From NCBI GenBank assembly GCA_029557905.1, contig JAKQHR010000070.1, forward strand, positions 5,613 through 69,612: 64,000 nt of DNA, read 5' to 3'. The notes below the pieces were generated by a model. That model did not search any database. It saw only the letters and a program-made list of their open reading frames with translations, and was not told where the DNA came from. Source of the stretch: Verrucomicrobiota bacterium. Lineage in GTDB: Bacteria; Verrucomicrobiota; Kiritimatiellia; JAKQHR01. The position numbers and the translations under genes are program-made. Positions 7,523 to 63,294 of the stretch are shown here, one piece after another (the stretch's first letter is position 1; the number at the start of each line of letters is the position of its first letter).

Positions 7523-7527
7523 TTATT

Positions 7528-7860
7528 ATGAAAAAAGCGCTGTGTTTTATCCTGCTGTCACTGTTTACCGGCTGTTCCTCCCTGATCACACAGTTTGGAA
7601 CGGATAAAGACGATATGTATGAATGCGGCCCGCCGGTAAAGGTCAAACAGATCTACAGCGGAACTGCGTGCAACATTCTTCATGCGAAAGCCGTCATCAA
7701 CGGGACCACAGGAATGGATGACCCGGGCCGGGCCATTGAAGTGTGCATATTCCCCTTCTACTATGTATTTGAATTCCCGCTTTCACTGGTCATGGACACC
7801 GTCCTGCTTCCCATGACGATTTGCAAACAGATTATCTACGGAGACTTGACCATAGACTGA
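7528..7860 (+). CDS. Small lipoprotein (unknown)
   Basis: Signal peptide with lipobox LFTGCSS. 110 aa. Confidence 0.4.
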   Translation: MKKALCFILLSLFTGCSSLITQFGTDKDDMYECGPPVKVKQIYSGTACNILHAKAVINGTTGMDDPGRAIEVCIFPFYYVFEFPLSLVMDTVLLPMTICKQIIYGDLTID

Positions 7861-7976
7861 TGAAGTGGATCGCCTATATTCTGGCCGTCTTCGTTGTCTG
7901 GCTGCACGTGTATTCCTATGTGCACACACATTCAGATAAGGTGACTTCTGAATCAACCATGTTTGAAGCCTTTTAG
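7860..7976 (+). CDS. Putative 38-aa single-TM His-rich micropeptide (MKWIAYILAVFVVWLHVYSYVHTHSDKVTSESTMFEAF)
   Basis: Not in the ORF track (under 60 aa). Its ATG overlaps the TGA of the upstream lipoprotein gene (ctgATGAag), suggesting translational coupling. Hydrophobic core followed by HxYxYxHxH. Confidence 0.25.
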   Translation: MKWIAYILAVFVVWLHVYSYVHTHSDKVTSESTMFEAF

Positions 7977-8008
7977 GGGGATATCATTGATTTGGCTGGA
8001 GGACTTCG

Positions 8009-9388
8009 ATGTCACGAAAATACCGATTAATGCATAAACTGCATGCAGCACTCGCATGTTTTCTCACACTGGCTTGCTGCGCAACGGCACAAACACAGGA
8101 TCTGCAGGCTGAACTCATGGCCGCCGCTCAAAAAGGGGAACTCGCGAAGATTGAAGAACTGATGGATGCGGGCGCTGATCCTCACGCCTGCAGCAAATAC
8201 AGTGAAAGTCCGTTCGGCAGAGCGGCACGGGCCGGTCATACTGAGGCCGCACACCTGATGCTGGATAAAGGCGGAGTCACTCAGAATCCGGAGAAACAGA
8301 ATTGCCCCACTCCTCTCATGATGGCGGCCATGACGGACTGCACGAACCTGATCGCACGACTTCTTGAAGCGGGGGCTGATGTCAACGAAAAGCGCATAGG
8401 CGGGCGGACGCCTCTCATTCTGGCCGCGCAGAATGGACACAATGAAGCCGTGCGCATGCTGCTCGATAACGGCGCCGACATGAACGTGACGGTGGGGCTG
8501 GATAACATGACGGTTGTGCAATGGGCCATATTCACGGGGAAAAAGGACACGGTGGAACTTCTGCTGGATCGAGGGGCGGATCCCGGCCCCACTCCGCTGA
8601 TGGGCCCAGCCTGCCAGGGGAATCTGGAAATGATGGAAGTACTGGTTTCCCGAGGAGCGGATGTCAATGCACGACGTTTGGCGGCGACTTCAGTGAGGAA
8701 TAATCAGGAATGGGAAGCCGCCCTTCATGCGGCCGCAACCTGCTGCCGGACAGACTCCATGGCATGGCTTCTGGAGCACGGGGCACCGGTGGATGATCCG
8801 GGCGCGTATGGCAAAACGCCTCTCATGTCTGCGATCACAGACCGCTGTCACGACGGGGCACTGCTTCTGATTGAGAAAGGAGCAAACGTCAATGCCGTTG
8901 ACCGGCTCAACCTGACGCCATTGATTTATGCTGCAAGGGGAGGTGATCCAAATGTCATCCAAATGCTTCTCAAACACGGGGCAGATGTAAACTTCAAGGG
9001 GAAATCCGGCATGACCGCCCTGGACGCAGCCTTGGAATGGGAACACGATCACATTGCAGTGCTGTTGATCAAATCCGGCGCAGATGTGACGGCCGACACG
9101 CTGCTGCGCGCGGCGCAGGAACGCAGCGCGGCATGGGATAATGGTGAACTCATGCAGAGCATTCTGGATCGGGGTGTTGATGTCAACAGCACAAGCGATC
9201 TGGGAGAAACCGCGCTTATGGCTGCAGTCCAGAAAGGCCTAACAGATAATGTTCAATGGCTTCTTTCTCGGGGCGCGGACGCGACACTTAAAGACAACAG
9301 CGGGAAAACAGCCGAGGATTATACAAAGGATCCAAAGATCCTTGAAGCACTGCGCCGGTCGCGGGAAGAAAATGTTTCCACAGAATGA
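8009..9388 (+). CDS. Secreted ankyrin-repeat protein (about 12 ANK repeats)
   Basis: Signal peptide. Repeated TPLMxAAxxGHxxxVxLLLxxGADVN ankyrin consensus throughout 459 aa. Confidence 0.8.
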   Translation: MSRKYRLMHKLHAALACFLTLACCATAQTQDLQAELMAAAQKGELAKIEELMDAGADPHACSKYSESPFGRAARAGHTEAAHLMLDKGGVTQNPEKQNCPTPLMMAAMTDCTNLIARLLEAGADVNEKRIGGRTPLILAAQNGHNEAVRMLLDNGADMNVTVGLDNMTVVQWAIFTGKKDTVELLLDRGADPGPTPLMGPACQGNLEMMEVLVSRGADVNARRLAATSVRNNQEWEAALHAAATCCRTDSMAWLLEHGAPVDDPGAYGKTPLMSAITDRCHDGALLLIEKGANVNAVDRLNLTPLIYAARGGDPNVIQMLLKHGADVNFKGKSGMTALDAALEWEHDHIAVLLIKSGADVTADTLLRAAQERSAAWDNGELMQSILDRGVDVNSTSDLGETALMAAVQKGLTDNVQWLLSRGADATLKDNSGKTAEDYTKDPKILEALRRSREENVSTE

Positions 9389-9465
9389 TTGCAGATTGCA
9401 CAAGCGGACTTGATATTCCCGCGCATTCAGTCAATATTTATCGAAAAGTTAACCAGGAGCAGAAT

Positions 9466-10368
9466 ATGCATATACCGCAAGCCATGTTGCAGGGAACGAT
9501 TTGTCCAGTGACGGCCGCCGCCAGCGCGGCCGGGATCGCCGGAGCAGCCTTTGCCGCTGTTAAGTCAAAGTTCAAACCGGTCGCCGGACGTTTCGCTGCG
9601 GTTACCGCGCTGATCTTCGCGGCGCAGATGATCAACTTCCCCATCTCCGGGGGCACATCCGGCCATCTGCTGGGCGGCGTGCTGGCCTCCTCGCTGCTGG
9701 GCACCCCGCTGGGCATGCTGAGCATCGCCCTCGTGGTGGCCGTGCAGGCCCTTGTCTTCTCCGATGGCGGGCTCACGGTGCTCGGAGCAAACATTTTCAA
9801 CATGTCTATCGTCGGCACGGGGCTGGGCGGACTGATTCACAGCACGCTGAGCGCAAAGAATAATACCAGAATCTTCACGGCTGCTTCCGCGGGCATTGCC
9901 GCATGGATATCCGTTGTGGCGGCCTCTTTTGCGGTTTCCGTTGAACTCAGCGTTGCCGGAACCATCCCCTTCTCCACGGTCATTGCGGCCATGATTTCGA
10001 CCCACGCGGTGATCGGCATCGGTGAAGGCCTGATCACTGCCGCCGCGGTTTATGCGCTGGCCTCCCGGCCCGCAGAAGAGAAAGTCCGCGGCAGCGTTGC
10101 CATCCCGCTCTCCGCGGCGGCAGTCCTCGGACTGATGATCAGTCCGTTTGCGTCCTCTCTGCCCGACGGGCTGGAATGGGTGGCGGAGAAGTACAGCTTC
10201 CTTCATGAGAGCGCCCCGGCCTTCGTGGCGGTCATGCCGGACTACACCATCCCGGTCATATCGTTTGAAATGCTTTCAACAGGCCTTGCGGGCCTTGCGG
10301 GCGTCGTGATCTGCTTCGGCATCGCATGGATCTCGGCTCAAACTCTGCTTGCCCGCGCCCGGAGATGA
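9466..10368 (+). CDS. cbiM: CbiM/NikM-like ECF-type cobalt/nickel transporter substrate-capture subunit (possibly CbiMN fusion)
   Basis: Begins MHIPQAML (CbiM-type MHIPDG N-terminus). Multi-TM. AGGAGC RBS 6-11 nt upstream. Longer than a typical CbiM, so may include a CbiN-like C-terminus. Confidence 0.6.
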   Translation: MHIPQAMLQGTICPVTAAASAAGIAGAAFAAVKSKFKPVAGRFAAVTALIFAAQMINFPISGGTSGHLLGGVLASSLLGTPLGMLSIALVVAVQALVFSDGGLTVLGANIFNMSIVGTGLGGLIHSTLSAKNNTRIFTAASAGIAAWISVVAASFAVSVELSVAGTIPFSTVIAAMISTHAVIGIGEGLITAAAVYALASRPAEEKVRGSVAIPLSAAAVLGLMISPFASSLPDGLEWVAEKYSFLHESAPAFVAVMPDYTIPVISFEMLSTGLAGLAGVVICFGIAWISAQTLLARARR

Positions 10369-10841
10369 AAATGAACCGTGTGTGGCTGTTTGTCGTGACA
10401 GCGCTGCTGGCCGGCTGCGGCGGGTCAAAGGACAAATCCATGCTTCTGAAGGACTGGGACAGCGTATTCGTTCCACTCGGCATCGAAACGCTGACCTCCA
10501 TGGATGACGCCCTGAAGGAAAAGGGCATCGGCAATGTAAAAAGTTCCGACATGAAGCTGGTCTTCACCTATATGGATTCCGAATTCAGCGACGGGATCGG
10601 CCCCGGAGCAATCGTGTATTCCGACATCTATGCCGTCCCCCCAAGAACCATGTTCATGGAAATGCGGGTCTGGCAGTGCTACGAGGCCATTTTGAATGAT
10701 CCGCGGGCGAAAGGCATCCATGTGAACCCCGACGCGCCCAACAAGAAACCCTACACGGTTTCCGCGACCGAAATGCGCGGGGCGCTGGATAAACTTCCAA
10801 GACAGCCGCGCATGCCGATGGATATCTCCATCAAGAATTAG
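10365..10841 (+). CDS. Lipoprotein of unknown function
   Basis: Start ATGAAAATG overlaps the cbiM stop. Signal peptide plus lipobox LLAGCGG. Confidence 0.4.
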   Translation: MKMNRVWLFVVTALLAGCGGSKDKSMLLKDWDSVFVPLGIETLTSMDDALKEKGIGNVKSSDMKLVFTYMDSEFSDGIGPGAIVYSDIYAVPPRTMFMEMRVWQCYEAILNDPRAKGIHVNPDAPNKKPYTVSATEMRGALDKLPRQPRMPMDISIKN

Positions 10842-10848
10842 GACCGGT

Positions 10849-11835
10849 TCAGCCGCGATTTTTCCGGAAGAGTTTTCTAAGTCCGGTTCCTCCCAGCCCG
10901 GCCAGAAGCAGCGTCAAGCCTGTCGCCGCAGTGCCCTTTGCGCTGCCGGCCTTGCGCCGGTTGTAGGTTTCGACCGATTCGGTGGTGATGATGCCAATGC
11001 GCGCGGGCACCGGGACGTCCAGCACCGTTGCGAAGTCGTCGTACAGATGCGAGGGATCAGGATCAAGAATGCCCGTCACGTCAAACGGCTCCGTGCCTGG
11101 AAGAACCTCGTGCGGGAGCATGACGAACAGCCGGCCGCCCATGCCCTCCGCCACGGGATAATAGCGGAGGGGCTTGAAATCCCATGAATAATCCGTGATC
11201 AGCAGCAGCGCATCCTCCGGGATCTCCTGCCCGTACTCCTTTTCCGCCACCGCAAGGATATCCTTCAGGTCGTGCTCCAGTTCAGGCCACGGCATGTTTT
11301 TCTTGAGTTCCGCCAGACGTGTCAGCGGTCCTTCATGCTCCTGTGCCCGGAGCCATGATTTTCCTGCCGCTTCATCTGCTTTGAAAACCGGCGACAAAGC
11401 CCAGAGCGAAAGACCGCTGCCTCGGACGGGCGCCAGCAGGCGCTCGCGCAGCACCTCATCTGCCTTCCCTTTCTTCCGGCTCAGAATCTGCAGCCGCAGA
11501 TACTCGGCTTCCAGCGGCTTGGTGATATGCACAACTGTACCCAGAAACGCCAACGCATCGGACGGCAGCCCCGCCGCGAGATCCAGCGGATAGCGCTGAT
11601 CGGTCGGCCGGCCGGTGTAAACCGGGCGAACAGACGCGGTGGGATAAATCACATGATCCGTATCAAGCTGAACGCTCATGCGGACATAATGGTTGTCATC
11701 CTCACTGAGCAGGATTTCCGCCTGCTGCACCGACAGCGTCTCCGGCGTCAACGGCAGCGGCGGATACTTGTGAAACATCATCGCGGCCAGCGCGAGCAGA
11801 ACACTTCCGGCAATCATCATCAACCATCTGAACAT
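10849..11835 (-). CDS. Membrane-anchored protein of unknown function with C-terminal TM plus basic tail
   Basis: N-terminal TM (MFRWLMMIAGSVLLALAAMM). C-terminus GTAATGLTLLLAGLGGTGLRKLFRKNRG resembles a C-terminal sorting-type anchor. Start could instead be at 11931. Confidence 0.35.
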   Translation of the reverse strand: MFRWLMMIAGSVLLALAAMMFHKYPPLPLTPETLSVQQAEILLSEDDNHYVRMSVQLDTDHVIYPTASVRPVYTGRPTDQRYPLDLAAGLPSDALAFLGTVVHITKPLEAEYLRLQILSRKKGKADEVLRERLLAPVRGSGLSLWALSPVFKADEAAGKSWLRAQEHEGPLTRLAELKKNMPWPELEHDLKDILAVAEKEYGQEIPEDALLLITDYSWDFKPLRYYPVAEGMGGRLFVMLPHEVLPGTEPFDVTGILDPDPSHLYDDFATVLDVPVPARIGIITTESVETYNRRKAGSAKGTAATGLTLLLAGLGGTGLRKLFRKNRG

Positions 11836-11952
11836 AAAATCCTCTTCATGGGCGCAGTCTATAAAAACAGCCCCGCGCGTCCAGCCTGATATTTGCCCCC
11901 GGAACAAAAACATTGGTCCCAATAGCCGCAATGGCTTCTTGGCGGATATTTC

Positions 11953-12109: not shown

Positions 12110-12424
12110 GTGCATTTTATTTGCATGAACAATAAACGGAAAAGCAGACTGGACGGCCGCGCCAAAATCATGAAGGCCCTCGCCCACCCCGCGCGCCTGC
12201 TCATCGTTGAGGAACTCTCCGGAGGCGAGCGGTGCGTGTGTGAATTCGTGGATATGATCGGCGGCGATTTTTCCACCGTGTCCAAGCATCTCTCCGTGCT
12301 GAAGAAAGCCGGACTGGTCATGGACCGGAAAAGCGGTCTGCAGGTCTACTATTCTCTCCGCTGTCCATGCGTGCTGAAGTTTTTTGACTGCCTCGCCGAT
12401 GTGATTGCTGAACAGAAAGGCTGA
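12110..12424 (+). CDS. arsR: ArsR/SmtB-family metalloregulator
   Basis: HTH region with ELSGGERCVCEFVDMIG (ArsR ELCVC-type As(III) site) and FSTVSKHLSVLKKAGLV. Confidence 0.8.
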   Translation: MHFICMNNKRKSRLDGRAKIMKALAHPARLLIVEELSGGERCVCEFVDMIGGDFSTVSKHLSVLKKAGLVMDRKSGLQVYYSLRCPCVLKFFDCLADVIAEQKG

Positions 12425-12426
12425 CG

Positions 12427-13812
12427 ATGGACTGGAGAACTGAATCAAAGAAACTGGCGCTGATTCTGGGAGTGTTCCTGGCTATATTCTATCTTCCTGT
12501 CGGCTATGCGCGATTTGACGGCGCGGTGATGGAGGCGCTGCATCTTGTGAAATGGTACGCGCGCGAGCACGTGCTTTTGTGCCTGGTACCGGCTTTTTTC
12601 ATCGCCGGCGCCATCGGGGTTTTTGTAAGCCAGAATGCGGTGATGAAATATTTCGGGCCGAAGGCCCGCAAGCTTCTTTCCTACGGCGTGGCCTCGGTTT
12701 CCGGAACCATTCTAGCCGTTTGCTCCTGCACGGTCCTCCCCATCTTCGGCGGAATCTACATGCGCGGCGCGGGGCTTGGACCAGCCATTGCCTTTCTCTA
12801 TTCCGGCCCCGCGATCAACGTGCTGGCGATTGTGCTGACCGCGCGAGTGCTCGGCTGGCAGCTTGGCCTGGCGCGCGCTGTCGGCGCCGTAGCCTTCAGT
12901 ATTTTGATCGGGCTGCTGATGCATCTGATCTTCCTTAAAGAAGAACGCGCAAGGCATGCGGAACCGCAGGATGTCTTCATCGGCGATGATGACAAGCCGC
13001 CCCGCCCGCTTTGGCAGACCGCACTTTATTTTTTCAGCATGGCGGCCGTGCTCGTGTTTGCCAACTGGGCCAAACCGTCTGAAGCCACAGGCGTCTGGCA
13101 TGCGATTTTCGCTTCGAAGTGGATCATTACCGCTGTTTTTGGTCTCCTGCTGGTTTTCACGCTGTGGAAGTTCATGGGAGTCAAGCCGCGGCACCTGGCT
13201 GCCGGAATTGTCGCCGTGACAGCCGCTGTCCTCCTCGCTCCGGATCATCCTGTTGTTGCGTTCACCGCCGGATGCATCGCCCTTGCCGTAATCACATCGG
13301 TCAGCACACGGGAAATGAAGGACTGGCGCGACCAGACCTGGGGCTTCGCAAAACAGATCACGCCCCTTCTGCTGGGCGGCGTGCTGGCGGCGGGATTTTT
13401 CCTCGGCAGTCCGGAATCCAGCGATGCGGGCATCATCCCCAGCCGCTGGATTCAGGCGCTGGTCGGAGACAGCCCTTCTGTATTCTGGAGCTATGCGGCC
13501 GGATCCGATGCGGCGGTTCCCGGGTGGCTGTCATTCATCTGGCCGCTGTGGACCAGTTTCTTTGCGTCCATCACCGGGGCGCTGATGTATTTCGCAACAC
13601 TAACCGAAGTTCCGATCCTGCGCGGCCTGATGGACAGCGGCATGGGCCAGGGTCCCGCGCTTGCCCTGCTTCTGGCAGGGCCGGCGCTTTCGCTCCCCAA
13701 CATGCTGGTCATCAACTCCATCATCGGCCCAAAGAAAACGCTGGTGTATGTGGTGCTGGTTGTGGTGATGGCAACCGCAACAGGAATGCTGTTCGGAGCA
13801 GTGGCGGGATGA
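12427..13812 (+). CDS. arsP: ArsP-like (DUF318) permease, putative organoarsenical efflux
   Basis: Multi-TM permease with AVCSCTVLP, matching the ArsP TPFcSCSxxP motif. Lies between arsR and a redox-active disulfide protein 2 gene, a known arrangement. 461 aa suggests internal duplication. Confidence 0.6.
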   Translation: MDWRTESKKLALILGVFLAIFYLPVGYARFDGAVMEALHLVKWYAREHVLLCLVPAFFIAGAIGVFVSQNAVMKYFGPKARKLLSYGVASVSGTILAVCSCTVLPIFGGIYMRGAGLGPAIAFLYSGPAINVLAIVLTARVLGWQLGLARAVGAVAFSILIGLLMHLIFLKEERARHAEPQDVFIGDDDKPPRPLWQTALYFFSMAAVLVFANWAKPSEATGVWHAIFASKWIITAVFGLLLVFTLWKFMGVKPRHLAAGIVAVTAAVLLAPDHPVVAFTAGCIALAVITSVSTREMKDWRDQTWGFAKQITPLLLGGVLAAGFFLGSPESSDAGIIPSRWIQALVGDSPSVFWSYAAGSDAAVPGWLSFIWPLWTSFFASITGALMYFATLTEVPILRGLMDSGMGQGPALALLLAGPALSLPNMLVINSIIGPKKTLVYVVLVVVMATATGMLFGAVAG

Positions 13813-13848
13813 GGAATGGAATAATGGAATGATGGGAGAAAAGCGCAT

Positions 13849-14082
13849 ATGAAACTGATCCAGATTCTCGGGACGGGATGCCAAAAATGCAAACAGCTGT
13901 ACGCCAATACAGAAGCGGCAGTTAAGGCACTGGGCATTGAAGCGCGTATCGAAAAGGTCGAAAAGATTCCGGAAATCATGAAGTACGGCGTGATGACCAC
14001 TCCGGCCCTTGTGGTGGACGGGAAAGTAAAAAGCGCGGGGAAACTGCTTGCCCCGGAAGACATCCAGAAACTTTTGAACTGA
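13849..14082 (+). CDS. Thioredoxin-fold redox-active disulfide protein 2 (small CxxC protein)
   Basis: 77 aa, MKLIQILGTGCQKCKQL ... TTPALVVDGK. Family typically paired with DUF318/ArsP permeases. Confidence 0.7.
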   Translation: MKLIQILGTGCQKCKQLYANTEAAVKALGIEARIEKVEKIPEIMKYGVMTTPALVVDGKVKSAGKLLAPEDIQKLLN

Positions 14083-14085
14083 ACC

Positions 14086-14484
14086 ATGAAGACCTCTGCA
14101 AGAATTATCATTGTCGTCCTGCTGGCCGCGGCGGTCGCCGGGGTCATCATGGCCAGGCAGAACCGCACGGTGCCGGAGTCTGCTGATACAACGCCGCCCG
14201 TCTCCGCCCTGCCCCGTCTCGTGGATCTGGGCGCGGACAAGTGCATCCCGTGCAAAATGATGGCGCCCATTCTTGATGAGCTGAAGGAGACCTATGCCGG
14301 GAAACTGGAAGTGGAATTCATTGATGTCTGGAAAAATGAAACCGCGGGACAGGAATACGGAATTCAAATGATCCCCACGCAAATATTTTTCTCTCCTGAC
14401 GGTGAAGAGCTTTTCCGGCACGAAGGATTCTTCTCGCTCGACGAGATTCTGGCGAAGTGGAAAGAACTCGGGTATGCGCTGTGA
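14086..14484 (+). CDS. Membrane-anchored/periplasmic thioredoxin
   Basis: N-terminal TM anchor then thioredoxin CxxC: GADKCIPCKMMAPILDEL. Confidence 0.7.
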   Translation: MKTSARIIIVVLLAAAVAGVIMARQNRTVPESADTTPPVSALPRLVDLGADKCIPCKMMAPILDELKETYAGKLEVEFIDVWKNETAGQEYGIQMIPTQIFFSPDGEELFRHEGFFSLDEILAKWKELGYAL

Positions 14485-15179
14485 TTGAGCTTTTCACACA
14501 ACTCAGCCATGCCATCGAAGGGACCCCGCTCATTGCAGCAGGGGCATCCCTGCTCTGGGGCGTCCTGAGCATCCTGCTGAGCCCCTGCCACCTCGCCAGC
14601 ATCCCGCTGATCGTGGGGTTCATTGACGAACAGGGCAGCATATCAACCAAACGCGCCTTCCAGATTTCGCTGCTCTTTTCAGTCGGCATATTGATCACCA
14701 TTGCGCTGATCGGGGTGCTGACGGCGCTGGCGGGCCGCATGATGGGCGATGTTGGACGTTACGGGAACTGGTTTGTAGCCGCTGTCTTCTTTGTGGTCGG
14801 GCTGCATCTGATGGAAGTGATCCCGCTCAAGTTCACGGCGCCGGAACAGGTGAACATGAAGCGCAGGGGCTATCTGGCCGCCTTAATTCTGGGCCTTGTC
14901 TTCGGAGTGGCTCTGGGCCCCTGCACGTTTGCCTACATGGCGCCGATGCTGGCGATCACCTTCAAAATGTCGGCCACCCGCTGGCTCTATGGCGCATTCC
15001 TGCTGCTGATGTACGGCCTTGGCCATTGCGGAGTTATTGTGCTGGCGGGAACTTCTTATGAATGGATTGAGCATTATCTGAACTGGAACGAGAAATCGAA
15101 GGGAGCCGTCATCCTGAAAAAACTTTGCGGCCTGCTGGTCATTCTTGGCGGGCTCTGGCTGATTTGGAGTGCTCCATGA
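14481..15179 (+). CDS. ccdA: CcdA/DsbD-family transmembrane thiol-disulfide electron transporter
   Basis: Two conserved membrane cysteines (LLSPCHLASIPL, ALGPCTFAYMAP). GTG start overlaps the upstream Trx stop (GTGA). ORF track starts at 14457. Confidence 0.7.
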   Translation: MIELFTQLSHAIEGTPLIAAGASLLWGVLSILLSPCHLASIPLIVGFIDEQGSISTKRAFQISLLFSVGILITIALIGVLTALAGRMMGDVGRYGNWFVAAVFFVVGLHLMEVIPLKFTAPEQVNMKRRGYLAALILGLVFGVALGPCTFAYMAPMLAITFKMSATRWLYGAFLLLMYGLGHCGVIVLAGTSYEWIEHYLNWNEKSKGAVILKKLCGLLVILGGLWLIWSAP

Positions 15180-15616
15180 GAACAATGCTTGCCTTGCTCC
15201 TTGCCGTCGTTGCGGGAATGCTTCTTCCCTCCCCGGACAGCTGTGCGCAGTCTCCAACCAATGCACCGTCGGACAGCGGTCTCGTGATGTACTATTTCCA
15301 TCGCACCGGCCGCTGCCAGGGATGCCTGGAGATTGAGCGCCTGACCCGAAAAACGGCGGACGAATTCAAGGAGGAATATCCGCTGGATCTTTTCACTCTC
15401 GAAGTGAAGAACCTGGACGAGCCGGAGAATGAGCGCTTTGCAGATGATTTCAAGGTCACCTTCAACACGGTGGTCATTGCAAGCCGGAAAGACGGCGTTG
15501 TGGCCGGTTGGACCAATCTGAACGATCGGGTCTGGAATCTGTATTCCGACGAAGGCAGTTTTGTGGACTGCATCAAGGAAGAACTGCGAAAACGGCAGCC
15601 GGACCAGCCGGAGTAA
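15176..15616 (+). CDS. Secreted thioredoxin-like CxxC lipoprotein (TlpA-like?)
   Basis: ATG overlaps the ccdA stop (ATGA). Signal peptide MRTMLALLLAVVAG..SC. CxxC in YYFHRTGRCQGCLEIERL. Confidence 0.4.
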   Translation: MRTMLALLLAVVAGMLLPSPDSCAQSPTNAPSDSGLVMYYFHRTGRCQGCLEIERLTRKTADEFKEEYPLDLFTLEVKNLDEPENERFADDFKVTFNTVVIASRKDGVVAGWTNLNDRVWNLYSDEGSFVDCIKEELRKRQPDQPE

Positions 15617-15669
15617 TTTCTTCATTTTTCGCGTTGACGCACTGCGTCCCCTGTTCTATATTTCGTTAT

Positions 15670-16053
15670 ATGGCTAAATATAGAAATATGAATCTTCGCG
15701 GGGCGGAGGCTGTTTTTCAGGCCCTGTCGGACAAGGGCCGCCTTCGCATCCTGTGCGCGCTCCGCCACGGGGAACTGTGCATCTGCTGGATTGTCGAAAT
15801 GCTGGGCTTCGCCCCCTCCACCGTATCCAGGCACCTTTCGGTTCTCCGCAGCGCCGGACTGATCCAAACCCGCAAGCAGGAGCGCTGGGTTTACTGCTCG
15901 CTGCCCTCCATGCCCGTTTCTCCAATCATTGGAAAAATACTCCCGCAGATATTCCAATCACTGGAAAATTCACCGGAAGTCCGGGCGGATGCGCGGCTGA
16001 TTAAACGAATCCTTAAAAAAGAGGCATCGAAGTGCAAAATCCGGAAAAAATGA
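15670..16053 (+). CDS. arsR: ArsR-family As(III)-responsive repressor (second copy)
   Basis: HGELCICWIVEMLG (ELCVC-type site) and STVSRHLSVLRSAGLI HTH. Start at the internal ATG (MAKYRN). Confidence 0.75.
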   Translation: MAKYRNMNLRGAEAVFQALSDKGRLRILCALRHGELCICWIVEMLGFAPSTVSRHLSVLRSAGLIQTRKQERWVYCSLPSMPVSPIIGKILPQIFQSLENSPEVRADARLIKRILKKEASKCKIRKK

Positions 16054-16478
16054 AAATCCTGTTTCTCTGCACCGGAAACTCCTGCCGGAGCCAGATGGCC
16101 GAGGGCTGGGCTCGGCATCTGAAGGGCGATGTGATTGAGGCGTATTCCGCGGGCATTGAAACGCACGGGCTGAATCCGCTGGCCGTGAAGGTCATGAATG
16201 AGGCCGGAGTGGATATTGCCGGACACCACTCAAAGAACCTTTCTGATCTGGCCGACGTACAATTTGATTATGTGATCACCGTCTGCGACAACGCCCACGA
16301 GTCCTGCCCGATCTTTCCGGGAAAAACAAAAGTGGTGCATGCCGGATTCGACGATCCGCCGAGGCTGGCGAAGGACGCAATATCTGAGGCGGAAGCCCTC
16401 GCCCATTACCGGCGCGTGCGGGATGAAATCAGAGCGTTTGTCGAATCACTGCCGGAGAAACTGGAAATAATGGAATGA
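16050..16478 (+). CDS. arsC: Arsenate reductase, LMW-PTP/thioredoxin-coupled type
   Basis: P-loop MKILFLCTGNSCRSQMAEG (CX5R) and CDNAHESCP with downstream Cys. Alternative start at 16032. Confidence 0.8.
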   Translation: MKILFLCTGNSCRSQMAEGWARHLKGDVIEAYSAGIETHGLNPLAVKVMNEAGVDIAGHHSKNLSDLADVQFDYVITVCDNAHESCPIFPGKTKVVHAGFDDPPRLAKDAISEAEALAHYRRVRDEIRAFVESLPEKLEIME

Positions 16479-16557
16479 TGGAATATTGGAATAATGGAGA
16501 AGCCATGAAATCAGCCGGAAGCAGTTTATATCCTCGTCTTCCCACCATTCCAATATT
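16479..16557. promoter_or_regulatory. 14-bp inverted repeat (TGGAATATTGGAAT ... ATTCCAATATTCCA) between arsC and arsM: hairpin/attenuator or operator
   Basis: Perfect 14-nt arms at about 16489-16502 and about 16539-16552, separated by about 36 nt. The left flank shares the 17-mer AATAATGGAATGATGG with 13813-13840. Confidence 0.45.
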
Positions 16558-16574
16558 CCAACCCGACAGGAGCC

Positions 16575-17351
16575 TTGACCATGTCCTCAAGAAATAAAGA
16601 CAAGATCAGACAGAATGTACGCGGCCGCTATGCCGGCATTGCGGAAGGCAAGAGCTGTTCCTGCTGCTCCGCGCCGCAGGAATCGGCAAAGCTTGGCTAC
16701 ACGGAACAGGACCTTCGCGATGTTCCCGAAGGATCCGACATGGGACTTGGATGCGGAAATCCGCAGGCGATAGCGGCACTCAGGCCCGGCGAAACCGTGC
16801 TGGATCTCGGATGCGGCGGAGGATTCGACTGCTTTCTCGCTGCTCGGCAGGTTGGTGATTCCGGACTCGTGATCGGCATAGACATGACCGCCGAAATGAT
16901 TTCCAAGGCGCGCGCCAATGCCGAGAAATGCGGCGCAAGAAATGTTTCCTTCCGGCTGGGCGAGATCGAATATCTGCCCGTGGCGGATTCATCCGTGGAC
17001 GTCATCATATCCAACTGCGTGATCAATCTTTCGCCAGACAAGGAACAGGTTTTTGCGGAAGCATTTCGCGTGCTGAAGCCGGGGGGGCGGCTGGCCATTT
17101 CGGATGTAGTGGCCGTCAAACCCCTGCCCGAGAATACAATCCGCAACATGGATCAGTACTGCGGATGCGTATCGGGAGCCATGGCCATCGCTGAACAGGA
17201 GCGCATTCTAAGAAAAACCGGCTTCACAAGCGTCAAAGTCACACCCAAACCGGAGAGCCGGGAATTCATCCACACCTGGTTCCCGGGAACCGGAATTGAA
17301 GATTGCGTTTTATCGGCAGATATTACCGCTGTAAAATCAGGAGGCAAATGA
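16575..17351 (+). CDS. arsM: Arsenite S-adenosylmethionine methyltransferase ArsM
   Basis: SAM-MTase motif [10 protein letters not shown]. Conserved ArsM cysteines (N-terminal CSCCS, C-terminal YCGCVSGA). 258 aa. Confidence 0.8.
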
Positions 17352-18523
17352 TGCAGGACAGAAAAATGACAAGCATTTTTGAACGGTATCTGACCGTTTG
17401 GGTGCTGCTGTGCATAGCAGGCGGAATCATTCTTGGCAAGGTCGCCCCCCACCTGGCCAAAACTCTGGACGGAATGGCCATTTATGTCCAGGGCGCGCCG
17501 GTGGTGTCCATCCCGATTGCGATCTGCCTGTTCTTCATGATGTACCCCATCATGGTGAAGATTGACTTTGCGTCGGTGGTGAAGGCCGGCAAAAGCGGAA
17601 AACCCGTCTGGCTGACGCTGTTTGTGAACTGGGCCATCAAGCCGTTTACGATGTACGGCATCGCCCTGCTGTTTCTGGGAGTCCTGTTCCGCGGGTTCAT
17701 CGGTGCCGATGCCGTTGATCTGGTCAAAATGCCGTTCGGGCTTGACCTGCCGGTCGGGGCGGAGCATGGCGCGGGCGTGGTGATCCTTCAGGACGGGATT
17801 AAAATGCTCCAGGTTCCGCTCTGGCGAAGCTATCTGGCTGGATGCATTCTGCTGGGCATCGCGCCCTGCACGGCGATGGTGCTGGTGTGGGGCTATCTGG
17901 CCAAGGGCAATGACGGCCTGACGCTCGTTATGGTGGCCATCAATTCGCTGACGATGCTGGCGCTCTACGGGGTGCTGGGCGGCTTCCTGCTGGGCGTTGG
18001 ACGTCTTCCTGTGCCGTGGCAGGCGCTTGTTCTGTCCATTGGCATCTACGTTGCCCTGCCGCTGGTGGCGGGCTATTTCTCGCGCCGATGGATAATCGCC
18101 TCAAAAGGCGAAACATGGTTCAAGGAGAAGTTCCTGCATGTGCTGACCCCGGTCACCATCATCGCACTGCTGATCACGCTGGTGCTTTTGTTCAGCTTCA
18201 AGGGCGAAGTGATCCTGAACAATCCTCTGACCATTTTGTGGATAGCGATTCCTCTTTTCATCCAGACGAATCTGATCTTTGCACTGGGCTACTGGATGGC
18301 GCGGCTGCTGAAACTGTCCTATGAAGACGCCGCGCCGGCGGCCATGATCGGAGCCTCCAATCACTTCGAAGTTGCCATTGCCACCGCGACCATGCTTTTC
18401 GGACTGTCATCAGGTGCGGCGCTGGCCACGGTGGTTGGAGTGCTGATCGAAGTGCCGGTCATGCTGATGCTGGTGCGCATCTGCACATCCACTCAGAAGT
18501 GGTTTGCAAAAGAAACTTTGTGA
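17348..18523 (+). CDS. acr3: Arsenite efflux permease ACR3 family
   Basis: Multi-TM. ATGATG start overlaps the arsM stop, with AGGAGG RBS. ACR3-type length and conserved Cys in TM4 region (GIAPCTAMV). Confidence 0.75.
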
Positions 18524-18552: not shown

Positions 18553-19674
18553 ATGGATCAGATTCATGATTTCTTTGCGTCCTGCATCGCCGGCACGGAA
18601 AATGTGCTTTGCGATGAGCTGCGCGAGCTGAAAATCCCGAGTGTCCGCCTGAACCGGGGCGGCATACCTTTTCGGGGCGAATGGCGCGACGGCTGGCGGG
18701 CCTGCCTTGAGAGCCGCATCGCCCAGCGCATCCAGCTTCTTCTGGCGCGGTTCCCCTGCCCCGACGAGAACGCCCTCTACAGGGGCATCCGTGAAATCGC
18801 ATGGCAGGAGTATCTCACCCCGCAGAAATCCTTTGCCGTGAGCGCGGTGCTGCGGGCCAGCAAGTTGACGCACAGTGGATTCGCCGCGCTCAAGGTCAAG
18901 GACGCGATTGTGGACCACATCCGCGATCTTGAAAACAAGCGTCCGTCTGTAGACCGGGATGATCCTGATGTCCGCGTCTTTCTGTACATGGCCAATGACA
19001 AGGCCTCCGTTTATCTCGATATGTCGGGCGAATCGCTTCATATTCGCGGATATCGCACGGCTGCCGGCGAAGCGCCGCTGCGCGAGACTCTTGCAGCGGC
19101 TCTCCTGCGAATGTCCGGCTGGGACCGTAAAACAGCCCTTCTGGATCCCATGTGCGGTTCAGGAACCCTTGCCATTGAAGCGGCGCAGTGGGCGATCAAC
19201 AAGGCCCCGGGTCTGGAGCGCAGGCAGTTCGGGTTTGAACGGTGGGCAAATTTTACCTCTGAAATGGCTCATGCCCTTCGCGTTTTGAAGGGCGAACTGC
19301 GCGGCGCCATCTCAGGCACCAGCCCGAAAATTCAGGCCGCGGACATTGACTCCGCCATGGTTGAAATCGCCCGGAAAAATGCCCGCACAGCAGGCGTCAG
19401 GCTTTCCTTTAAGCAGCGGTCGCTGTTTGAAACCCAGTTTGACGGCGGACGGCAACTGGTCATTTTCAATCCGCCCTACGGCGAACGGCTGGAGGCGGAT
19501 CAGGAGTTCATCCGCAAAACAGCCGCGGCGGTCAGCCGGATGCACGGCTGGAGGGTCTGCATCCTTGCCGGAAGTCCTGAATACCAGCGCATGATTCCGG
19601 CCAAACCCGAGGCCGTAATCTCCCTGAAAAACGGGGATATTCCCTGCGATTTTCTTGTGTACGAAATTGATTGA
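18553..19674 (+). CDS. THUMP-domain class I SAM-dependent RNA methyltransferase (RlmL/RlmK N-terminal-type, NPPY family)
   Basis: Motif I DPMCGSGTLAIEAA. Motif IV IFNPPYGERL. Confidence 0.7.
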   Translation: MDQIHDFFASCIAGTENVLCDELRELKIPSVRLNRGGIPFRGEWRDGWRACLESRIAQRIQLLLARFPCPDENALYRGIREIAWQEYLTPQKSFAVSAVLRASKLTHSGFAALKVKDAIVDHIRDLENKRPSVDRDDPDVRVFLYMANDKASVYLDMSGESLHIRGYRTAAGEAPLRETLAAALLRMSGWDRKTALLDPMCGSGTLAIEAAQWAINKAPGLERRQFGFERWANFTSEMAHALRVLKGELRGAISGTSPKIQAADIDSAMVEIARKNARTAGVRLSFKQRSLFETQFDGGRQLVIFNPPYGERLEADQEFIRKTAAAVSRMHGWRVCILAGSPEYQRMIPAKPEAVISLKNGDIPCDFLVYEID

Positions 19675-19750
19675 CACAAAGCCCCGACGGGGAGAAACTG
19701 CAAATAGAGCGGGATGCAGTTTGGGGTGCGTTTCGCGGGGAGGTTGTGTC

Positions 19751-22402
19751 ATGAAAAGCAGTACTGTTCTTCTCTTTTCGGCATGTTTTCTGTACTCGGC
19801 GGTTTCAGCATTCGGGGGGCCTTCACTTCCAGTCACCAAGCCGCCCGTCGCGGATCAAAGTATACTGACCGGGCCTCCGGTTGATCCAGCGGCCACGAAC
19901 GGGCAGTGGTTCCTCGATTATGCCAGCGGTGTTGAACATTATCGCACACATGAGTTCCACGACAACCTGTTCGGCGGCCTGATGGGGGTCAATGCCATCA
20001 CGGGATTTGTAAGCAGCATTACCTATCTGGCCGGACCCGGTTCGCCGATCACGGCATTCAGCATTCAGGCAACGGTCTGGAATGACAACACCCCCGTCGG
20101 GGAATATATGGGCGGCACGAACAGCCATGGCGAATCACTTCTGTATATAGAAGCTCCTTACACGGACACACTGTACAACGTGAAGCTGACGGCCTCGTTT
20201 GCGGTCACAGACACGACCAACCTGCCTTCTCCGTCTCCCATCGGGCCGTATCCGCCGTATCTGGATCAGCAGCCGTACATTGAAGCCACGAATGAAGACC
20301 AGGCCGCATGGTACTGCTGGTCACCGGAAAGTGTTGAGTCTCCGACCGGCGGTTATTTCGTGCCGACCTGGGACTTTGGCGACATCCTCCCCGGACAGTC
20401 CTCGACCCGGCAGCTTGACTTTATTGTTCCCGCCACGATGTCCCCGATAGATTTCCGCTACAGCGTGCTTGTGCAGTCGCAGGCCACGCAGGCGGATATT
20501 CTGCTGAACCGGAGCACCTCGCTGAAAATCAGCACCTGGATGGATACCATATACTTCGATACTGGGGCCCCTTATCCGGAAGAACCCTTCCGCGGGAGCG
20601 ATGTGTCGGTGTTTCACAGCATCCCGGAAGAGGAGGAAGAGCCGGAACAGGATTTCGGCGATGCGCCGGATCCCAACTATCCGACACTGCTGGTTAATGA
20701 CGGCGCGCGGCACATCATCGTCCCGGGGATACAAATGGGATCCGCCATTGACGCTGAAGCCGATGGACAGCAGTCTCCCAATGCGGACGGCGATGACAAT
20801 GCGGGTATTGCCGACGAAGACGGGGTCAGCTTCATGGGGCTGAATTATGCTGGACAGATCAGCACCGTGGCGGTGAGCTGCTCCACATCAGGCTGGCTCT
20901 ACATCTGGGTGGACTTTGACGCCAACGGCAGCTGGGGTGATTTCGGCGAACATCAGAACCAGTGGGCCACACAGGGTCTGAATTATGCTCAAATCGCCTT
21001 CCCCACCAACGCCGCCATCGGAAACACCTGTGCCCGCTTCCGTTTCACCACCGACACCAATTCATTGAACAACACCGGCCAGGCCCGCGACGGAGAAGTG
21101 GAAGACTATCTCATCACGATTAAAAAAGAGGAAGAAGAGCAGCTCGATTTCGGCGACGCGATGGACAATGCGCTGATGCCTGTCTATCCGACGCTCGCAG
21201 CGAACGCCGGCGCGTGTCACACCATTGTGCCGGGGGTGATGCTCGGAACCGCTGTGGACGGGGAGCCGGACGGGCAGCCAGCGCCAAACGCCGACGGAGA
21301 CGACAACAACCCGCCTCCTCCGGGGGGCATTGATGACGAGGACGGCGTGACGCTGCCGTCGGTTTTTGTTGCTGGTGCCAGTCCGGTCATTTCCGTTGTG
21401 GCTTCCACCGGAGGTTTTCTTGACGCGTGGATTGACTGGAACTGCGACAACGACTGGGCCGATCCGGGGGAGCAAGTGTTCACAAGCACACCGCTCAGCG
21501 CAGGACTCAACGTCCTGACCCTGCTTGTGCCGCAGCCCCCCGTGCTGGCTGCCGGCGGCCCGCATTCCCGATGGCGGTTCACCACGAACGCGACCGCCTC
21601 GGTTTCGTACACGGGATGGATTGACCATGGCGAAGTGGAAGACTATGAAGTTCGTCTCGAAGTCCTCGATTTCGGCGACGCGCCGGACCCGTCCTATCCC
21701 ACTCTTCTCGCAAGCGACGGGGCGCGCCATCGGGTTCCTTCGGTCTATTACCTGGGGGCGACGGCGCCCGACAGCGATCCGGACGGACTCCCCGCCCCCA
21801 GCGCAGACGGGGATGATCTGTCCAATCTGCCGGACGAAGACGGGGTTTCTCTCGGGTCGGCCCTGTTTCGCGGGCAGACAACCATGTCCACTGTTTCCGC
21901 GTCGATTGGCGGCCTGCTGGATGCATGGATGGACTTCAATGCGGACGGAGACTGGTCCGACGCCGGTGAAAACATAGCGGCATCCCATCCGCTGTCCGCG
22001 GGCGCAAATCCCTTCAACATCACCGTCCCCGCATCCGCTGCGCTGGGCCCGACCTATGCGCGTTTCCGCTTCAGCAGCGGCGGCGGCCTCAGTTATACCG
22101 GGCTGGCTTCAGACGGAGAGGTGGAGGATTACATGTTTACCATCCACCAGCAGTCACCAGACACCAACACCTTCGCCGTCACCAGCATGGTGCTTTCGGC
22201 GGGCAGCGTTTTCACCATCCAATGGGCGGGCGAAAGCAACGTGACCTATGAAACACAGACGCTGGGCGATCTGCTGACGACGGCCGCGCCGCCCTGGACG
22301 GCATGGGGGCCCCGCATCACCGGCGGACCCTATACGCTGACGTTCACCAATATTCTGGAAACGACCCGGTTCTTCCGCGTCGTGGCGCCCTTCGCCCAGT
22401 AG
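19751..22402 (+). CDS. Large secreted protein with 3-4 repeated GEVED-type modules
   Basis: Signal peptide MKSSTVLLFSACFLYSAVSAFG. Module repeated: DFGDAPDPxYPTL..DGARH ... DGxPxxNADGDD ... DEDGV ... RFRF(T/S) ... GEVEDY. Found at about aa 330, 490 and 660. Confidence 0.6.
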   Translation: MKSSTVLLFSACFLYSAVSAFGGPSLPVTKPPVADQSILTGPPVDPAATNGQWFLDYASGVEHYRTHEFHDNLFGGLMGVNAITGFVSSITYLAGPGSPITAFSIQATVWNDNTPVGEYMGGTNSHGESLLYIEAPYTDTLYNVKLTASFAVTDTTNLPSPSPIGPYPPYLDQQPYIEATNEDQAAWYCWSPESVESPTGGYFVPTWDFGDILPGQSSTRQLDFIVPATMSPIDFRYSVLVQSQATQADILLNRSTSLKISTWMDTIYFDTGAPYPEEPFRGSDVSVFHSIPEEEEEPEQDFGDAPDPNYPTLLVNDGARHIIVPGIQMGSAIDAEADGQQSPNADGDDNAGIADEDGVSFMGLNYAGQISTVAVSCSTSGWLYIWVDFDANGSWGDFGEHQNQWATQGLNYAQIAFPTNAAIGNTCARFRFTTDTNSLNNTGQARDGEVEDYLITIKKEEEEQLDFGDAMDNALMPVYPTLAANAGACHTIVPGVMLGTAVDGEPDGQPAPNADGDDNNPPPPGGIDDEDGVTLPSVFVAGASPVISVVASTGGFLDAWIDWNCDNDWADPGEQVFTSTPLSAGLNVLTLLVPQPPVLAAGGPHSRWRFTTNATASVSYTGWIDHGEVEDYEVRLEVLDFGDAPDPSYPTLLASDGARHRVPSVYYLGATAPDSDPDGLPAPSADGDDLSNLPDEDGVSLGSALFRGQTTMSTVSASIGGLLDAWMDFNADGDWSDAGENIAASHPLSAGANPFNITVPASAALGPTYARFRFSSGGGLSYTGLASDGEVEDYMFTIHQQSPDTNTFAVTSMVLSAGSVFTIQWAGESNVTYETQTLGDLLTTAAPPWTAWGPRITGGPYTLTFTNILETTRFFRVVAPFAQ

Positions 22403-22463
22403 GCTTAATCAAGCTTCCTGCTCGACTTGCGCGGCCGCTTCGCTTAATTTGGCGGCATGGTAT

Positions 22464-22556
22464 TTCAAAAGTTCCAATCATTGGAAGTTTCTGCGCGAAA
22501 AGTTCCAATGATTGGAAGTTTTTTTGCAAAAAGTTCCAGCCATTGGAAGTTTTGAA
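22464..22556. repeat. Array of 3 near-palindromic units (AAAGTTCCAAT-SA-TTGGAAGTTTTT), 31-bp period, ending 13 nt before the glycogen synthase ATG
   Basis: GTTCC cores at 22471, 22502 and 22533. Inverted repeat TTCCAAT/ATTGGAA around each core. Second, similar array at 43941-44030. Confidence 0.8.
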
Positions 22557-22568
22557 AGGGGTCGAGAC

Positions 22569-24395: not shown

Positions 24396-24447
24396 CAAAT
24401 TCGCGCGGGGCGGCTATGTTGACCGGATTAAAACAGGAGAAACGTGA

Positions 24448-25623: not shown

Positions 25624-25667
25624 TACTCCATTGACACCCGCGCGGGAAACGGCTACTCTGCGCGCAT

Positions 25668-55180: not shown

Positions 55181-55185
55181 AGAAA

Positions 55186-55216
55186 AAGCCGGCCGCGTGA
55201 CACGGCCGGCCTTTCC
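55186..55216. terminator. Bidirectional intrinsic terminator between convergent lpdA and the 1525-aa coiled-coil gene
   Basis: AAAAAGCCGGCCGcgtgacaCGGCCGGCCTTTCC: 8-bp GC stem with an A-tract on one side and T-rich on the other. Confidence 0.6.
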
Positions 55217-55229
55217 GGAAAGAAATCCG

Positions 55230-59807: not shown

Positions 59808-59837
59808 AATAAACCTCTCAACATCTTTCCTGCGCGG

Positions 59838-63281: not shown

Positions 63282-63294
63282 TGGTTCGACTCCT

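Follow-up and report, generated by a model that had tools for sequence, protein, structure and literature searches.

What a set of thiol-disulfide proteins does inside an arsenic cluster is the question raised by a 64,000-nucleotide stretch of Verrucomicrobiota DNA, the whole of which we call the window. At 12110 to 18523, ten open reading frames follow one another on the forward strand in the order arsR1, PF03773 permease gene, arsE, anchored thioredoxin gene (trx), ccdA, arsF, arsR2, arsC, arsM, and acr3, which bears out an earlier note on this DNA that had placed the redox genes between two arsR copies. The overlaps that the note had given for the redox genes are likewise present: read directly from the letters, four nucleotides join trx to ccdA (GTGA, 14481 to 14484) and ccdA to arsF (ATGA, 15176 to 15179), and a further ATGA joins arsR2 to arsC (16050 to 16053). 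We do not retain the term “island” for this cluster: marks of a mobile element were not found, its GC content (0.55 to 0.58) is in line with that of its surroundings (0.57 to 0.60), and its flanking genes (scanned at 6455 to 11931 and 18553 to 26981) are housekeeping genes. The same cbiM gene adjoins the cluster in the closest relative, L082. The locus is best explained as an ArsR-controlled arsenic detoxification operon set with arsR1-permease-arsE-trx-ccdA-arsF as its first unit, the genes of which are probably cotranscribed and induced by arsenic.

The repressor gene that opens the cluster, arsR1 (12125 to 12424), lies in a frame opening at GTG 12110 and starts at ATG 12125; its 99-residue product is of the ArsR/SmtB type (HTH_5), has a CVC motif within the DNA-binding region, and is 91% identical to a 99-residue ArsR of L082. 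Starting 2 nucleotides past its stop is the gene for the PF03773 (ArsP_1) permease (12427 to 13812; 229 bits in Pfam), a protein of 461 residues with about 11 hydrophobic segments and a Cys99-Ser-Cys101 motif kept in 77 of 78 orthologues. It reaches no curated NCBIfam equivalog, the best matches, SaoE and SO_0444, being far under their cut-offs. ArsP of Campylobacter jejuni, reportedly identified as a methylarsenite efflux permease by Chen et al. in 2015, is a putative counterpart that shares with it the Pfam family, the ars context, and the conserved Cys pair, but is only about 315 residues long.

Beyond the redox genes, family profiles identify a further ArsR/SmtB repressor that bears a CIC motif (arsR2, 15670 to 16053, starting at ATG 15670 or at ATG 15688, to which the gene call in L001 corresponds) and an ArsC of the LMW-PTP type (16050 to 16478, starting at the overlapping ATG 16050 or at GTG 16032), which belongs to the thioredoxin-coupled class and carries CTGNSCRS plus a later Cys pair. 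The arsenite S-adenosylmethionine methyltransferase ArsM (16581 to 17351, 256 residues; NF008823, 333 bits against a cut-off of 263) and the arsenite efflux transporter Acr3 (about 17348 to 18523; TIGR00832, 378 bits against a cut-off of 283) complete the cluster. A repeat scan found GGAATNNT octamers in the spacer between the permease gene and arsE (13812 to 13835), kept at the equivalent position in L082. It also recovered the inverted repeat previously noticed between arsC and arsM, where four tandem GGAATNNT octamers and an inverted copy (16464 to 16560) make up a hairpin with 19-nucleotide arms (16479 to 16497 and 16542 to 16560; 89% complementary) that is kept in L082 and has a folding z-score of only -1.66. 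Ahead of arsR2 lies a sigma-70-like candidate promoter, TTGACG-17-TATATT (15634 to 15662), recognized by its match to the consensus only.

[quoted passage not shown] It has a CQKC motif, the GxGCxxC signature of redox proteins, and TPA as its cis-Pro context, as is usual for thioredoxins; since it lacks a hydrophobic segment or leader, it is predicted to be cytoplasmic. Next comes a thioredoxin of 132 residues (14086 to 14484; thioredoxin family profiles), anchored by a single N-terminal hydrophobic helix (residues 5 to 23), with an IPT cis-Pro motif and a CIPC motif that is the commonest version among its orthologues. The charges flanking this helix are ambiguous as to topology (30 N-in, 17 N-out, and 26 ties), and some orthologues (L013, L028, and L036) have textbook cleavable signal peptides. 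Further thioredoxin proteins with signal peptides occur inside the clusters of relatives. CcdA (14481 to 15179, 232 residues), a member of the DsbD_TM family (50 bits against a Pfam cut-off of 27), has six hydrophobic helices, with Cys36 in an SPC motif in helix 1 and Cys148 in a GPC motif in helix 4, each kept in 79 of 84 orthologues; its GTG start, overlapping the trx stop, agrees with those of the orthologues. Its best NCBIfam match is ArsG (NF040495), at 47.8 bits, far under the cut-off of 200.

The fourth gene (15176 to 15616) encodes a 146-residue protein of the ArsF family (NF040494, 77 bits against a cut-off of 60) whose identity to the other members found does not exceed about 44%. 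An N-terminal hydrophobic leader precedes a thioredoxin-fold domain with a CxxC motif (CQGC), both cysteines of which are invariant across 57 sequences. The earlier note had called the protein a TlpA-like lipoprotein. The thioredoxin fold stands, the structure model (pLDDT 89) matching thioredoxins, but ArsF has no Pfam match and no cis-proline; “lipoprotein” is unsupported, because the P-D-S ahead of Cys23 does not make a lipobox and this Cys is not conserved among homologues. A cis-proline is normal in redox-active thioredoxin-fold enzymes, and 0 of the 57 ArsF sequences have one across residues 90 to 101, the stretch spanning that position; hence, to judge from sequence, ArsF may bind arsenic instead of transferring electrons. 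Nor is it an obligate part of the system, as it is missing from L082 and from 15 of 22 CcdA-type loci.

These 22 loci, in relatives with CcdA 69 to 89% identical and no less than 3 kb of flanking sequence on each side, bear on whether the set belongs to arsenic at all. The Pfam family name might suggest an ordinary CcdA/ResA-type pair for cytochrome c maturation that came to lie in an ars cluster by chance, and the earlier note had named such a context in relatives as the outcome that would speak against its proposal. This explanation is close to refuted: CcdA is accompanied by ArsE and an anchored thioredoxin at all 22 loci, and most also have ars genes (PF03773 permease at 17, ArsR at 17, and Acr3 at 14); there are no cytochrome c maturation genes in the scanned flanks of the window, and translational coupling ties the overlapping genes into a unit headed by arsR. 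The data support a module dedicated to the ars operon. Relatives were confirmed by tblastn in 541 metagenomic stretches. Among ArsF homologues in 79 genomes, a permease, Acr3, ArsC, or ArsM gene lies within 5 kb at 70 loci and a DsbD-superfamily membrane gene at 69; PF03773 permease genes are near 63, arsC near 22, and arsM near 11. The proposed link of the module to ArsM in particular is weak, with ArsM at 11 of the 22 CcdA loci as well. The hosts are mostly uncultured anaerobes of sediments and sludge.

The NCBIfam families ArsE, ArsF, and ArsG presumably derive from work by Chen, Zhang, and Rosen, who in 2019 are said to have named ArsEFG of Shewanella putrefaciens 200. The ArsE-ArsF-ArsG triad is conserved widely and in many genomes follows an arsR-permease pair as in the window, and ArsE adjoins the permease at most loci. 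ArsG-type membrane proteins near ArsF score 251 to 286 bits against the cut-off of 200, and at 28 of 31 loci occur without an anchored thioredoxin, whereas CcdA is paired with one at 34 of 37; no ArsF locus has both ArsG and CcdA (Fisher p = 1.7e-12 for the split, ignoring the shared ancestry of loci). ArsG corresponds to Pfam DsbD_2, and a profile alignment with CcdA (99% probability) brings the two helix-1 Cys into register but leaves the helix-4 Cys two residues apart. Both are DsbD-superfamily proteins in which Cys adjoins Pro in helices 1 and 4. The module in the window is best read as a variant or counterpart of ArsEFG in which CcdA and the anchored thioredoxin take the place of ArsG.

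Taking these findings together, we propose, as the probable function, an arsenic-dedicated pathway that carries reducing equivalents across the membrane from ArsE through CcdA to the periplasmic thioredoxin and ArsF. A trans-membrane thiol relay, as previously suggested, is the natural reading of a leaderless ArsE, a six-helix CcdA, and two CxxC proteins with hydrophobic leaders. ArsE, presumably reduced by the thioredoxin reductase of the cell, would reduce through its CQKC the Cys pair of CcdA, which in turn would reduce the CIPC of a periplasm-facing thioredoxin; the latter, or CcdA directly, would keep the CxxC of ArsF reduced. The targets of the periplasmic dithiols would be arsenicals that the adjacent permease and Acr3 handle. 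The dithiols might reduce these arsenicals or bind and release them, or they might shield or restore thiols that come under attack by As(III) or MAs(III), both in the periplasm and on the permease.

A different, unlikely role would be that of putative arsenic-binding chaperones or sinks, with ArsE and/or ArsF passing As(III) or MAs(III) through CxxC to or from the permease, in the manner of ArsD, a thioredoxin-fold protein that works for ArsA; all that would then be left to CcdA and the thioredoxin is to maintain the periplasmic Cys pair in reduced form. The invariant CxxC of an ArsF family without cis-proline, the adjacency of ArsE to the permease, and the conserved CSC motif of the latter fit this role, but the TPA context and GxGCxxC of ArsE are those of a redox protein, and the idea overlaps with the relay rather than excluding it. 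We consider it quite improbable that the mechanism reported for ArsEFG applies here: a joint action of ArsE and ArsF on trivalent roxarsone or nitarsone, whose nitro group they reduce, and efflux of the aromatic amine product through the DsbD-like protein, which would be a permease and carry no electrons. The family names and scores of ArsE and ArsF, ArsG as the best match of CcdA, and the wide conservation of the triad point that way. Against it, the score of CcdA falls far short of ArsG, and it is difficult to imagine ArsE and ArsF as one soluble enzyme, because only ArsF of the two has a leader. Moreover, ArsG and CcdA share the superfamily and the Cys-Pro neighbours, the replacement of ArsG by CcdA plus thioredoxin fits electron transfer and not efflux, a permease is already encoded nearby at most ArsF loci, and sediment and sludge anaerobes do not inhabit obvious sites of synthetic nitro-aromatic arsenicals.

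Sections 3.9 and 4 of Castillo and Saier (2010; PMC2963123) suggest that the redox genes feed electrons to the cytoplasmic ArsC, and the thioredoxin-coupled type of the ArsC in the window agrees with this. We nevertheless regard it as very unlikely, since arsC is near just 8 of the 22 CcdA-type loci and 22 of the 79 ArsF loci, and in the window arsC is preceded by another arsR and a promoter-like sequence. A cytoplasmic reaction needs neither a membrane CcdA nor leader-bearing proteins, a tension remarked on by those authors themselves in the same part of the paper (PMC2963123).

A redox set, probably a relay, is really present in this ars cluster, but it varies a system already known, and the earlier claim of an undescribed module has to be given up. 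[quoted passage not shown] Their triad equals the arsE-trx-ccdA core of the window, with the same three families (PMC2963123). To it the present data add hundreds of metagenomic relatives, ArsF, and a context arguing for a periplasmic role. The window module has in common with its sister ArsEFG the ArsE and ArsF families, both over curated cut-offs, the ars operon, and a third partner that is a membrane protein of the DsbD superfamily. It differs in that this protein is a CcdA (DsbD_TM) and not the ArsG equivalog, in its extra anchored thioredoxin, which ArsG-type loci lack, and in the order E-trx-ccdA-F as opposed to E-F-G. In terms of DsbD, CcdA and the thioredoxin are the equivalents of its beta and gamma domains. 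With DsbD and the CcdA-ResA systems (CcdA-CcmG and CcdA-StoA), the module shares the logic of a cytoplasmic thioredoxin-like donor, a two-Cys membrane protein, and an anchored periplasmic acceptor; those systems serve cytochrome c maturation, sporulation, or disulfide isomerisation, whereas the one in the window is dedicated to an ars operon, with its own candidate cytoplasmic donor in ArsE and an extra acceptor, ArsF, without cis-proline.

Ten open reading frames, all on the plus strand and assigned to families by profile searches against Pfam and NCBIfam, occupy positions 12110 to 18523, and, save for the label given to the last redox gene, their identities and order are those proposed in the earlier note. 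The two ArsR proteins, encoded by arsR1 (from the ATG at 12125 to 12424) and arsR2 (start at 15670 or 15688, end at 16053), match the Pfam HTH_5 domain with 52 and 60 bits, respectively, and carry a CxC motif in the region of the DNA-binding helix (RCVCEF and LCICWI), on the basis of which both are predicted to respond to As(III). The 461-residue permease (12427 to 13812) contains the PF03773/ArsP_1 domain (229.4 bits against a cut-off of 32.3) and hence belongs to the ArsP family by Pfam; its best NCBIfam matches, SaoE and SO_0444, both lie under their cut-offs, and orthology to the characterized ArsP of Campylobacter and transport of organoarsenicals are putative. Its CSC motif (Cys99-Ser-Cys101) is kept in 77 of 78 orthologues. 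The arsC product (start at 16032 or 16050, end at 16478) is of the LMW-PTP type (LMWPc, 72 bits against 23.2), with a CX5R loop (CTGNSCRS) and a later cysteine pair (VCDNAHESCP); by fold and motifs it is a member of the thioredoxin-coupled family, yet it scores 146.4 bits on the corresponding equivalog model, TIGR02691, under the cut-off of 174.3. At the downstream end lie arsM (16581 to 17351; NF008823, 332.6 bits against 263) and acr3 (about 17348 to 18523; TIGR00832, 377.6 bits against 282.8).

The redox genes lie between the permease gene and arsR2. A 77-residue thioredoxin-like protein of the MTH895/ArsE family (13849 to 14082; TIGR00412, 110.1 bits against 62) has its CxxC near the N-terminus (GTGCQKC at residues 8 to 14), and it is followed by a 132-residue thioredoxin with a single N-terminal hydrophobic helix and a CIPC motif (14086 to 14484), referred to here as the anchored thioredoxin. 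The next product (14481 to 15179) is a CcdA/DsbD_TM protein (PF02683, 50.1 bits against a Pfam gathering score of 27.1) with six hydropathy peaks and cysteines in helix 1 (Cys36, in SPC) and helix 4 (Cys148, in GPC), both motifs being present in 79 of 84 orthologues; it is predicted to carry reducing equivalents between a cytoplasmic thioredoxin and a thioredoxin-like protein of the periplasm. Its best NCBIfam match is ArsG (NF040495), on which it scores 47.8 bits, far below the equivalog cut-off of 200, and a phmmer search with it against PDB sequences returned no match.

The last redox gene (15176 to 15616) encodes a 146-residue ArsF-family protein whose match to NF040494, named in NCBIfam “nitrophenyl compound nitroreductase subunit ArsF family,” spans profile positions 2 to 105 of 106 and exceeds the subfamily cut-off (77 bits against 60). 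It has an N-terminal hydrophobic leader (residues 1 to 19), a CQGC motif and the family signature YYFH..RCxxC, with Y40, F41, R46, C47, C50 and W120 invariant in 57 sequences. This product had been described as a TlpA-like lipoprotein. The thioredoxin fold is borne out by AlphaFold modeling with 57 homologues (pLDDT 89.2), the best-scoring PDB entries being thioredoxins (E-values from 2e-5 to 5e-4); the narrower affiliation is not, since the protein has no Pfam match, including to the Redoxin, AhpC-TSA and Thioredoxin profiles, and none of the 57 sequences has a proline over residues 90 to 101, the stretch spanning the expected position of the cis-proline. Nor does its sequence support a lipoprotein: P-D-S precedes Cys23, there is no lipobox ([LVI][ASTVI][GAS]C), and the leader of its homologues lacks a conserved cysteine.

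The overlaps noted previously can be read directly from the sequence (GTGA at 14481 to 14484, ATGA at 15176 to 15179 and ATGA at 16050 to 16053). A scan for sigma-70 promoters gave a single site, TTGACG-17-TATATT, directly upstream of arsR2, because of which two transcription units are plausible; terminator-like matches in the cluster fall within genes and are not informative. The inverted repeat reported between arsC and arsM is present, with arms of 19 nt and 89% complementarity, its hairpin is not unusually stable on folding (z = -1.66), and an Rfam search of the cluster gave no match. Two intergenic spacers of the cluster contain tandem GGAATNNT octamers, one at 13812 to 13835 and the other, together with an inverted copy, at 16464 to 16560. 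The octamer turns up 9 times in the window, where 1.4 occurrences would be expected, and L082, an activated-sludge contig carrying the closest relative found for the cluster, keeps the repeats in both of these spacers.

The flanking genes code for YchF, an ankyrin-repeat protein, CbiM, a THUMP methyltransferase, a GEVED-domain protein and glycogen synthase. The label “island,” taken to mean a foreign insert, finds no support, and we reject horizontal acquisition on this evidence: the GC content of the cluster (0.55 to 0.58) shows no break from that nearby (0.57 to 0.60), the flanks are housekeeping genes, and cbiM lies upstream in L082 too. Two of the flanking products, both unrelated to the ars cluster, are worth recording: a 459-residue protein with ankyrin repeats and a hydrophobic N-terminal leader, unusual for bacteria (8009 to 9388), and a secreted protein of 915 residues and three GEVED domains, whose gene immediately follows that of the THUMP methyltransferase (19655 to 22402). 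Farther away, the region from 55000 to 64000 has a strongly negative AT skew (-0.2 to -0.33) and a negative GC skew, and it harbors two very long minus-strand ORFs (55230 to 59807, 1525 aa; 59838 to 63548, 1236 aa).

Scanning metagenomes with the window CcdA yielded 541 confirmed relatives, with identities of 69 to 89% for the best 79. At the 22 loci among these best 79 of 541 that extend 3 kb or more to either side of CcdA, ArsE and the anchored thioredoxin are always present, alongside the permease (17), ArsR (17), Acr3 (14), ArsM (11), ArsC (8) and ArsF (7). L082 shares 75 to 95% identity per protein, and its cluster lies downstream of the same cbiM gene in the order arsR-permease-arsE-trx-ccdA-arsC-arsM-acr3. 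It is devoid of arsF and arsR2, with ccdA running straight to arsC (8675 to 8699 of L082), such that the window has an extra arsF-arsR2 segment (15176 to 16053), found also on L001, a contig 99.9% identical to it. The window ArsF is unusually divergent, with at most about 44% identity to any other member found; a word-indexed homologue search with it recovered only the identical protein, on a 1.3-kb contig, and a tblastn search against plasmids gave no match.

The family as a whole is large, with 2074 cluster representatives in a full HMMER scan at E-values up to 1e-3. A genome scan with the motif YYFHRTxRC, taken from an alignment of a 16-sequence subset of ArsF, gave 80 loci, of which 79 were counted, in Planctomycetota, Ignavibacteria, Hydrogenedentota, Verrucomicrobiota, Desulfobacterota, Zixibacteria and others. 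Neighbors within 5 kb of arsF were counted with profiles iterated from the window proteins (for ArsE, with a length filter or single-sequence phmmer). A DsbD-superfamily gene is found at 69 of the 79 loci, the PF03773 permease at 63, ArsE and ArsR at 60 each, the anchored thioredoxin at 41, Acr3 at 35, ArsC at 22 and ArsM at 11; at least one of permease, Acr3, ArsC and ArsM is present at 70.

The DsbD-like genes beside arsF fall into two classes, namely, an ArsG type, which scores 251 to 286 bits on the ArsG equivalog model (cut-off 200) and matches Pfam DsbD_2, and a type resembling the window CcdA. For 28 of 31 ArsG-type genes there is no anchored thioredoxin nearby, 34 of 37 CcdA-type genes have one, and no ArsF locus has both types; the association has p = 1.7e-12 by Fisher's exact test, a statistic that ignores shared ancestry. 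Profile-profile comparison relates ArsG and CcdA with 99% probability over 210 columns, with the helix-1 cysteine aligned and the helix-4 cysteine displaced by two residues (GPC versus FCP). The simplest reading is that ArsG alone may do the job of CcdA and the anchored thioredoxin together. Such an exchange suits a thiol-disulfide carrier more readily than it does an efflux pump, and this is the chief point that the analysis adds. In several phyla the two solutions interchange beside the same set of ArsE, ArsF and permease genes, a testable pattern; the prediction is that ArsG carries thiol-disulfide equivalents across the membrane and that many anaerobes have a periplasmic, thiol-dependent step in their arsenic detoxification.

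In mechanistic terms, the relay previously proposed for the thioredoxin, CcdA and CxxC genes appears reasonable, given the Cys-Pro helices of CcdA and the CxxC proteins with leaders. ArsE, probably cytoplasmic since it lacks any hydrophobic segment, would reduce CcdA, whose six helices, with Cys36 and Cys148 each adjoining a proline, would accept the electrons and pass them to the anchored thioredoxin and ArsF at the outer face. The outer location of these two proteins is indicated indirectly: each has an N-terminal hydrophobic leader, some orthologues of the anchored thioredoxin have classic cleavable signal peptides, related clusters code for additional thioredoxin proteins whose signal peptides are clear, and the known partners of CcdA are extracytoplasmic. 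Charge counting around the thioredoxin anchor helix by the positive-inside rule is ambiguous. The periplasmic dithiols might protect or regenerate thiols hit by As(III) or MAs(III), serve the CSC-bearing permease, or reduce organoarsenicals; alternatively, ArsF might bind arsenic, the absent cis-proline being unusual for an oxidoreductase.

Other roles have to be weighed against this relay. The only experimental account of ArsEFG known to us gives the membrane protein a transport role: the arsEFG genes of Shewanella putrefaciens 200 were reportedly found by Chen, Zhang and Rosen to confer resistance to trivalent roxarsone and nitarsone, and ArsEF is said to reduce the nitro group and ArsG to export the resulting amine. 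A nitroreductase ArsEF coupled to a permease ArsG is the less probable reading here, as it fits poorly with the prediction of ArsE and ArsF in different compartments, with the membership of the membrane protein in the DsbD superfamily and with the exchange of ArsG for CcdA and thioredoxin. A supply of electrons to ArsC has a precedent in the 8 instances of CcdA/thioredoxin determinants described in ars operons of 7 organisms, for which a role with ArsC was suggested, with the authors' own caveat that a trans-membrane function is at odds with a cytoplasmic ArsC (Castillo and Saier 2010; PMC2963123). It is weakened by low co-occurrence, with ArsC at just 22 of the 79 ArsF loci and 8 of the 22 CcdA loci. 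CcdA and thioredoxin are also at home in housekeeping cytochrome c maturation, a role that is close to excluded here by a gene context that points to ars operons. The earlier note had posed this choice of neighborhood, and it falls on the arsenic side: since ArsE and thioredoxin are at all 22 CcdA loci and ars genes at most of them, the trx-ccdA block belongs to ars operons and not to cytochrome c maturation.

Some of the relatives possess additional domains. In L081 (8320 to 9783), L062 (3857 to 5170) and five further related loci (L060, L079, L131, L135 and L136), the anchored thioredoxin is 437 to 495 residues long and has a cysteine-rich C-terminal part that matches the alkylmercury lyase family MerB of Pfam with 59 bits (cut-off 27), with a weak match to NosL as well. 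A carbon-metal lyase domain within ars operons of anaerobes is intriguing; the 132-residue window thioredoxin is without this MerB-like domain. In L020 (8907 to 9881), another related locus, and in L081 (9827 to 10798), a protein of about 320 residues is encoded between the anchored thioredoxin and ccdA. Its signal peptide is clear, its N-terminal part is long and helical, and it ends in a thioredoxin domain (STGCxxC).

A more sweeping proposal, which we consider improbable, is that the set of ArsE, DsbD-like protein and periplasmic CxxC protein, in both its forms, constitutes a widespread, mis-assigned periplasmic arsenical-processing system of anaerobes, in which ArsG would be a thiol-disulfide transporter rather than an efflux pump and reducing power would drive periplasmic arsenical chemistry. 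With the thioredoxins fused to an organomercurial lyase-like domain, this chemistry could include oxygen-independent cleavage of the carbon-arsenic bond, for which we know of no enzyme. Few resistance systems have been studied as much as the ars operons, yet the role of thioredoxin and CcdA in them has been open since 2010; if the carrier and the periplasmic step are real, widely annotated genes would be renamed and models of arsenic handling would gain a compartment. The interest is moderate, given that no mechanism has been settled for the class as a whole and that the either/or pattern lends itself to a clear experiment.

For the window alone, the outcome is a modest, well-conserved variant built of known parts. 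The designation “undescribed module” has to be given up: NCBIfam has curated models for ArsE, ArsF and ArsG, names that go back to the 2019 work of Chen, Zhang and Rosen in Environ Sci Technol. Set against the ArsEFG system, the window has an ArsE and an ArsF that both pass these curated cut-offs and, in place of ArsG, CcdA and an anchored thioredoxin with ArsF retained, which makes it an ArsEFG-like set that is new as a variant only.
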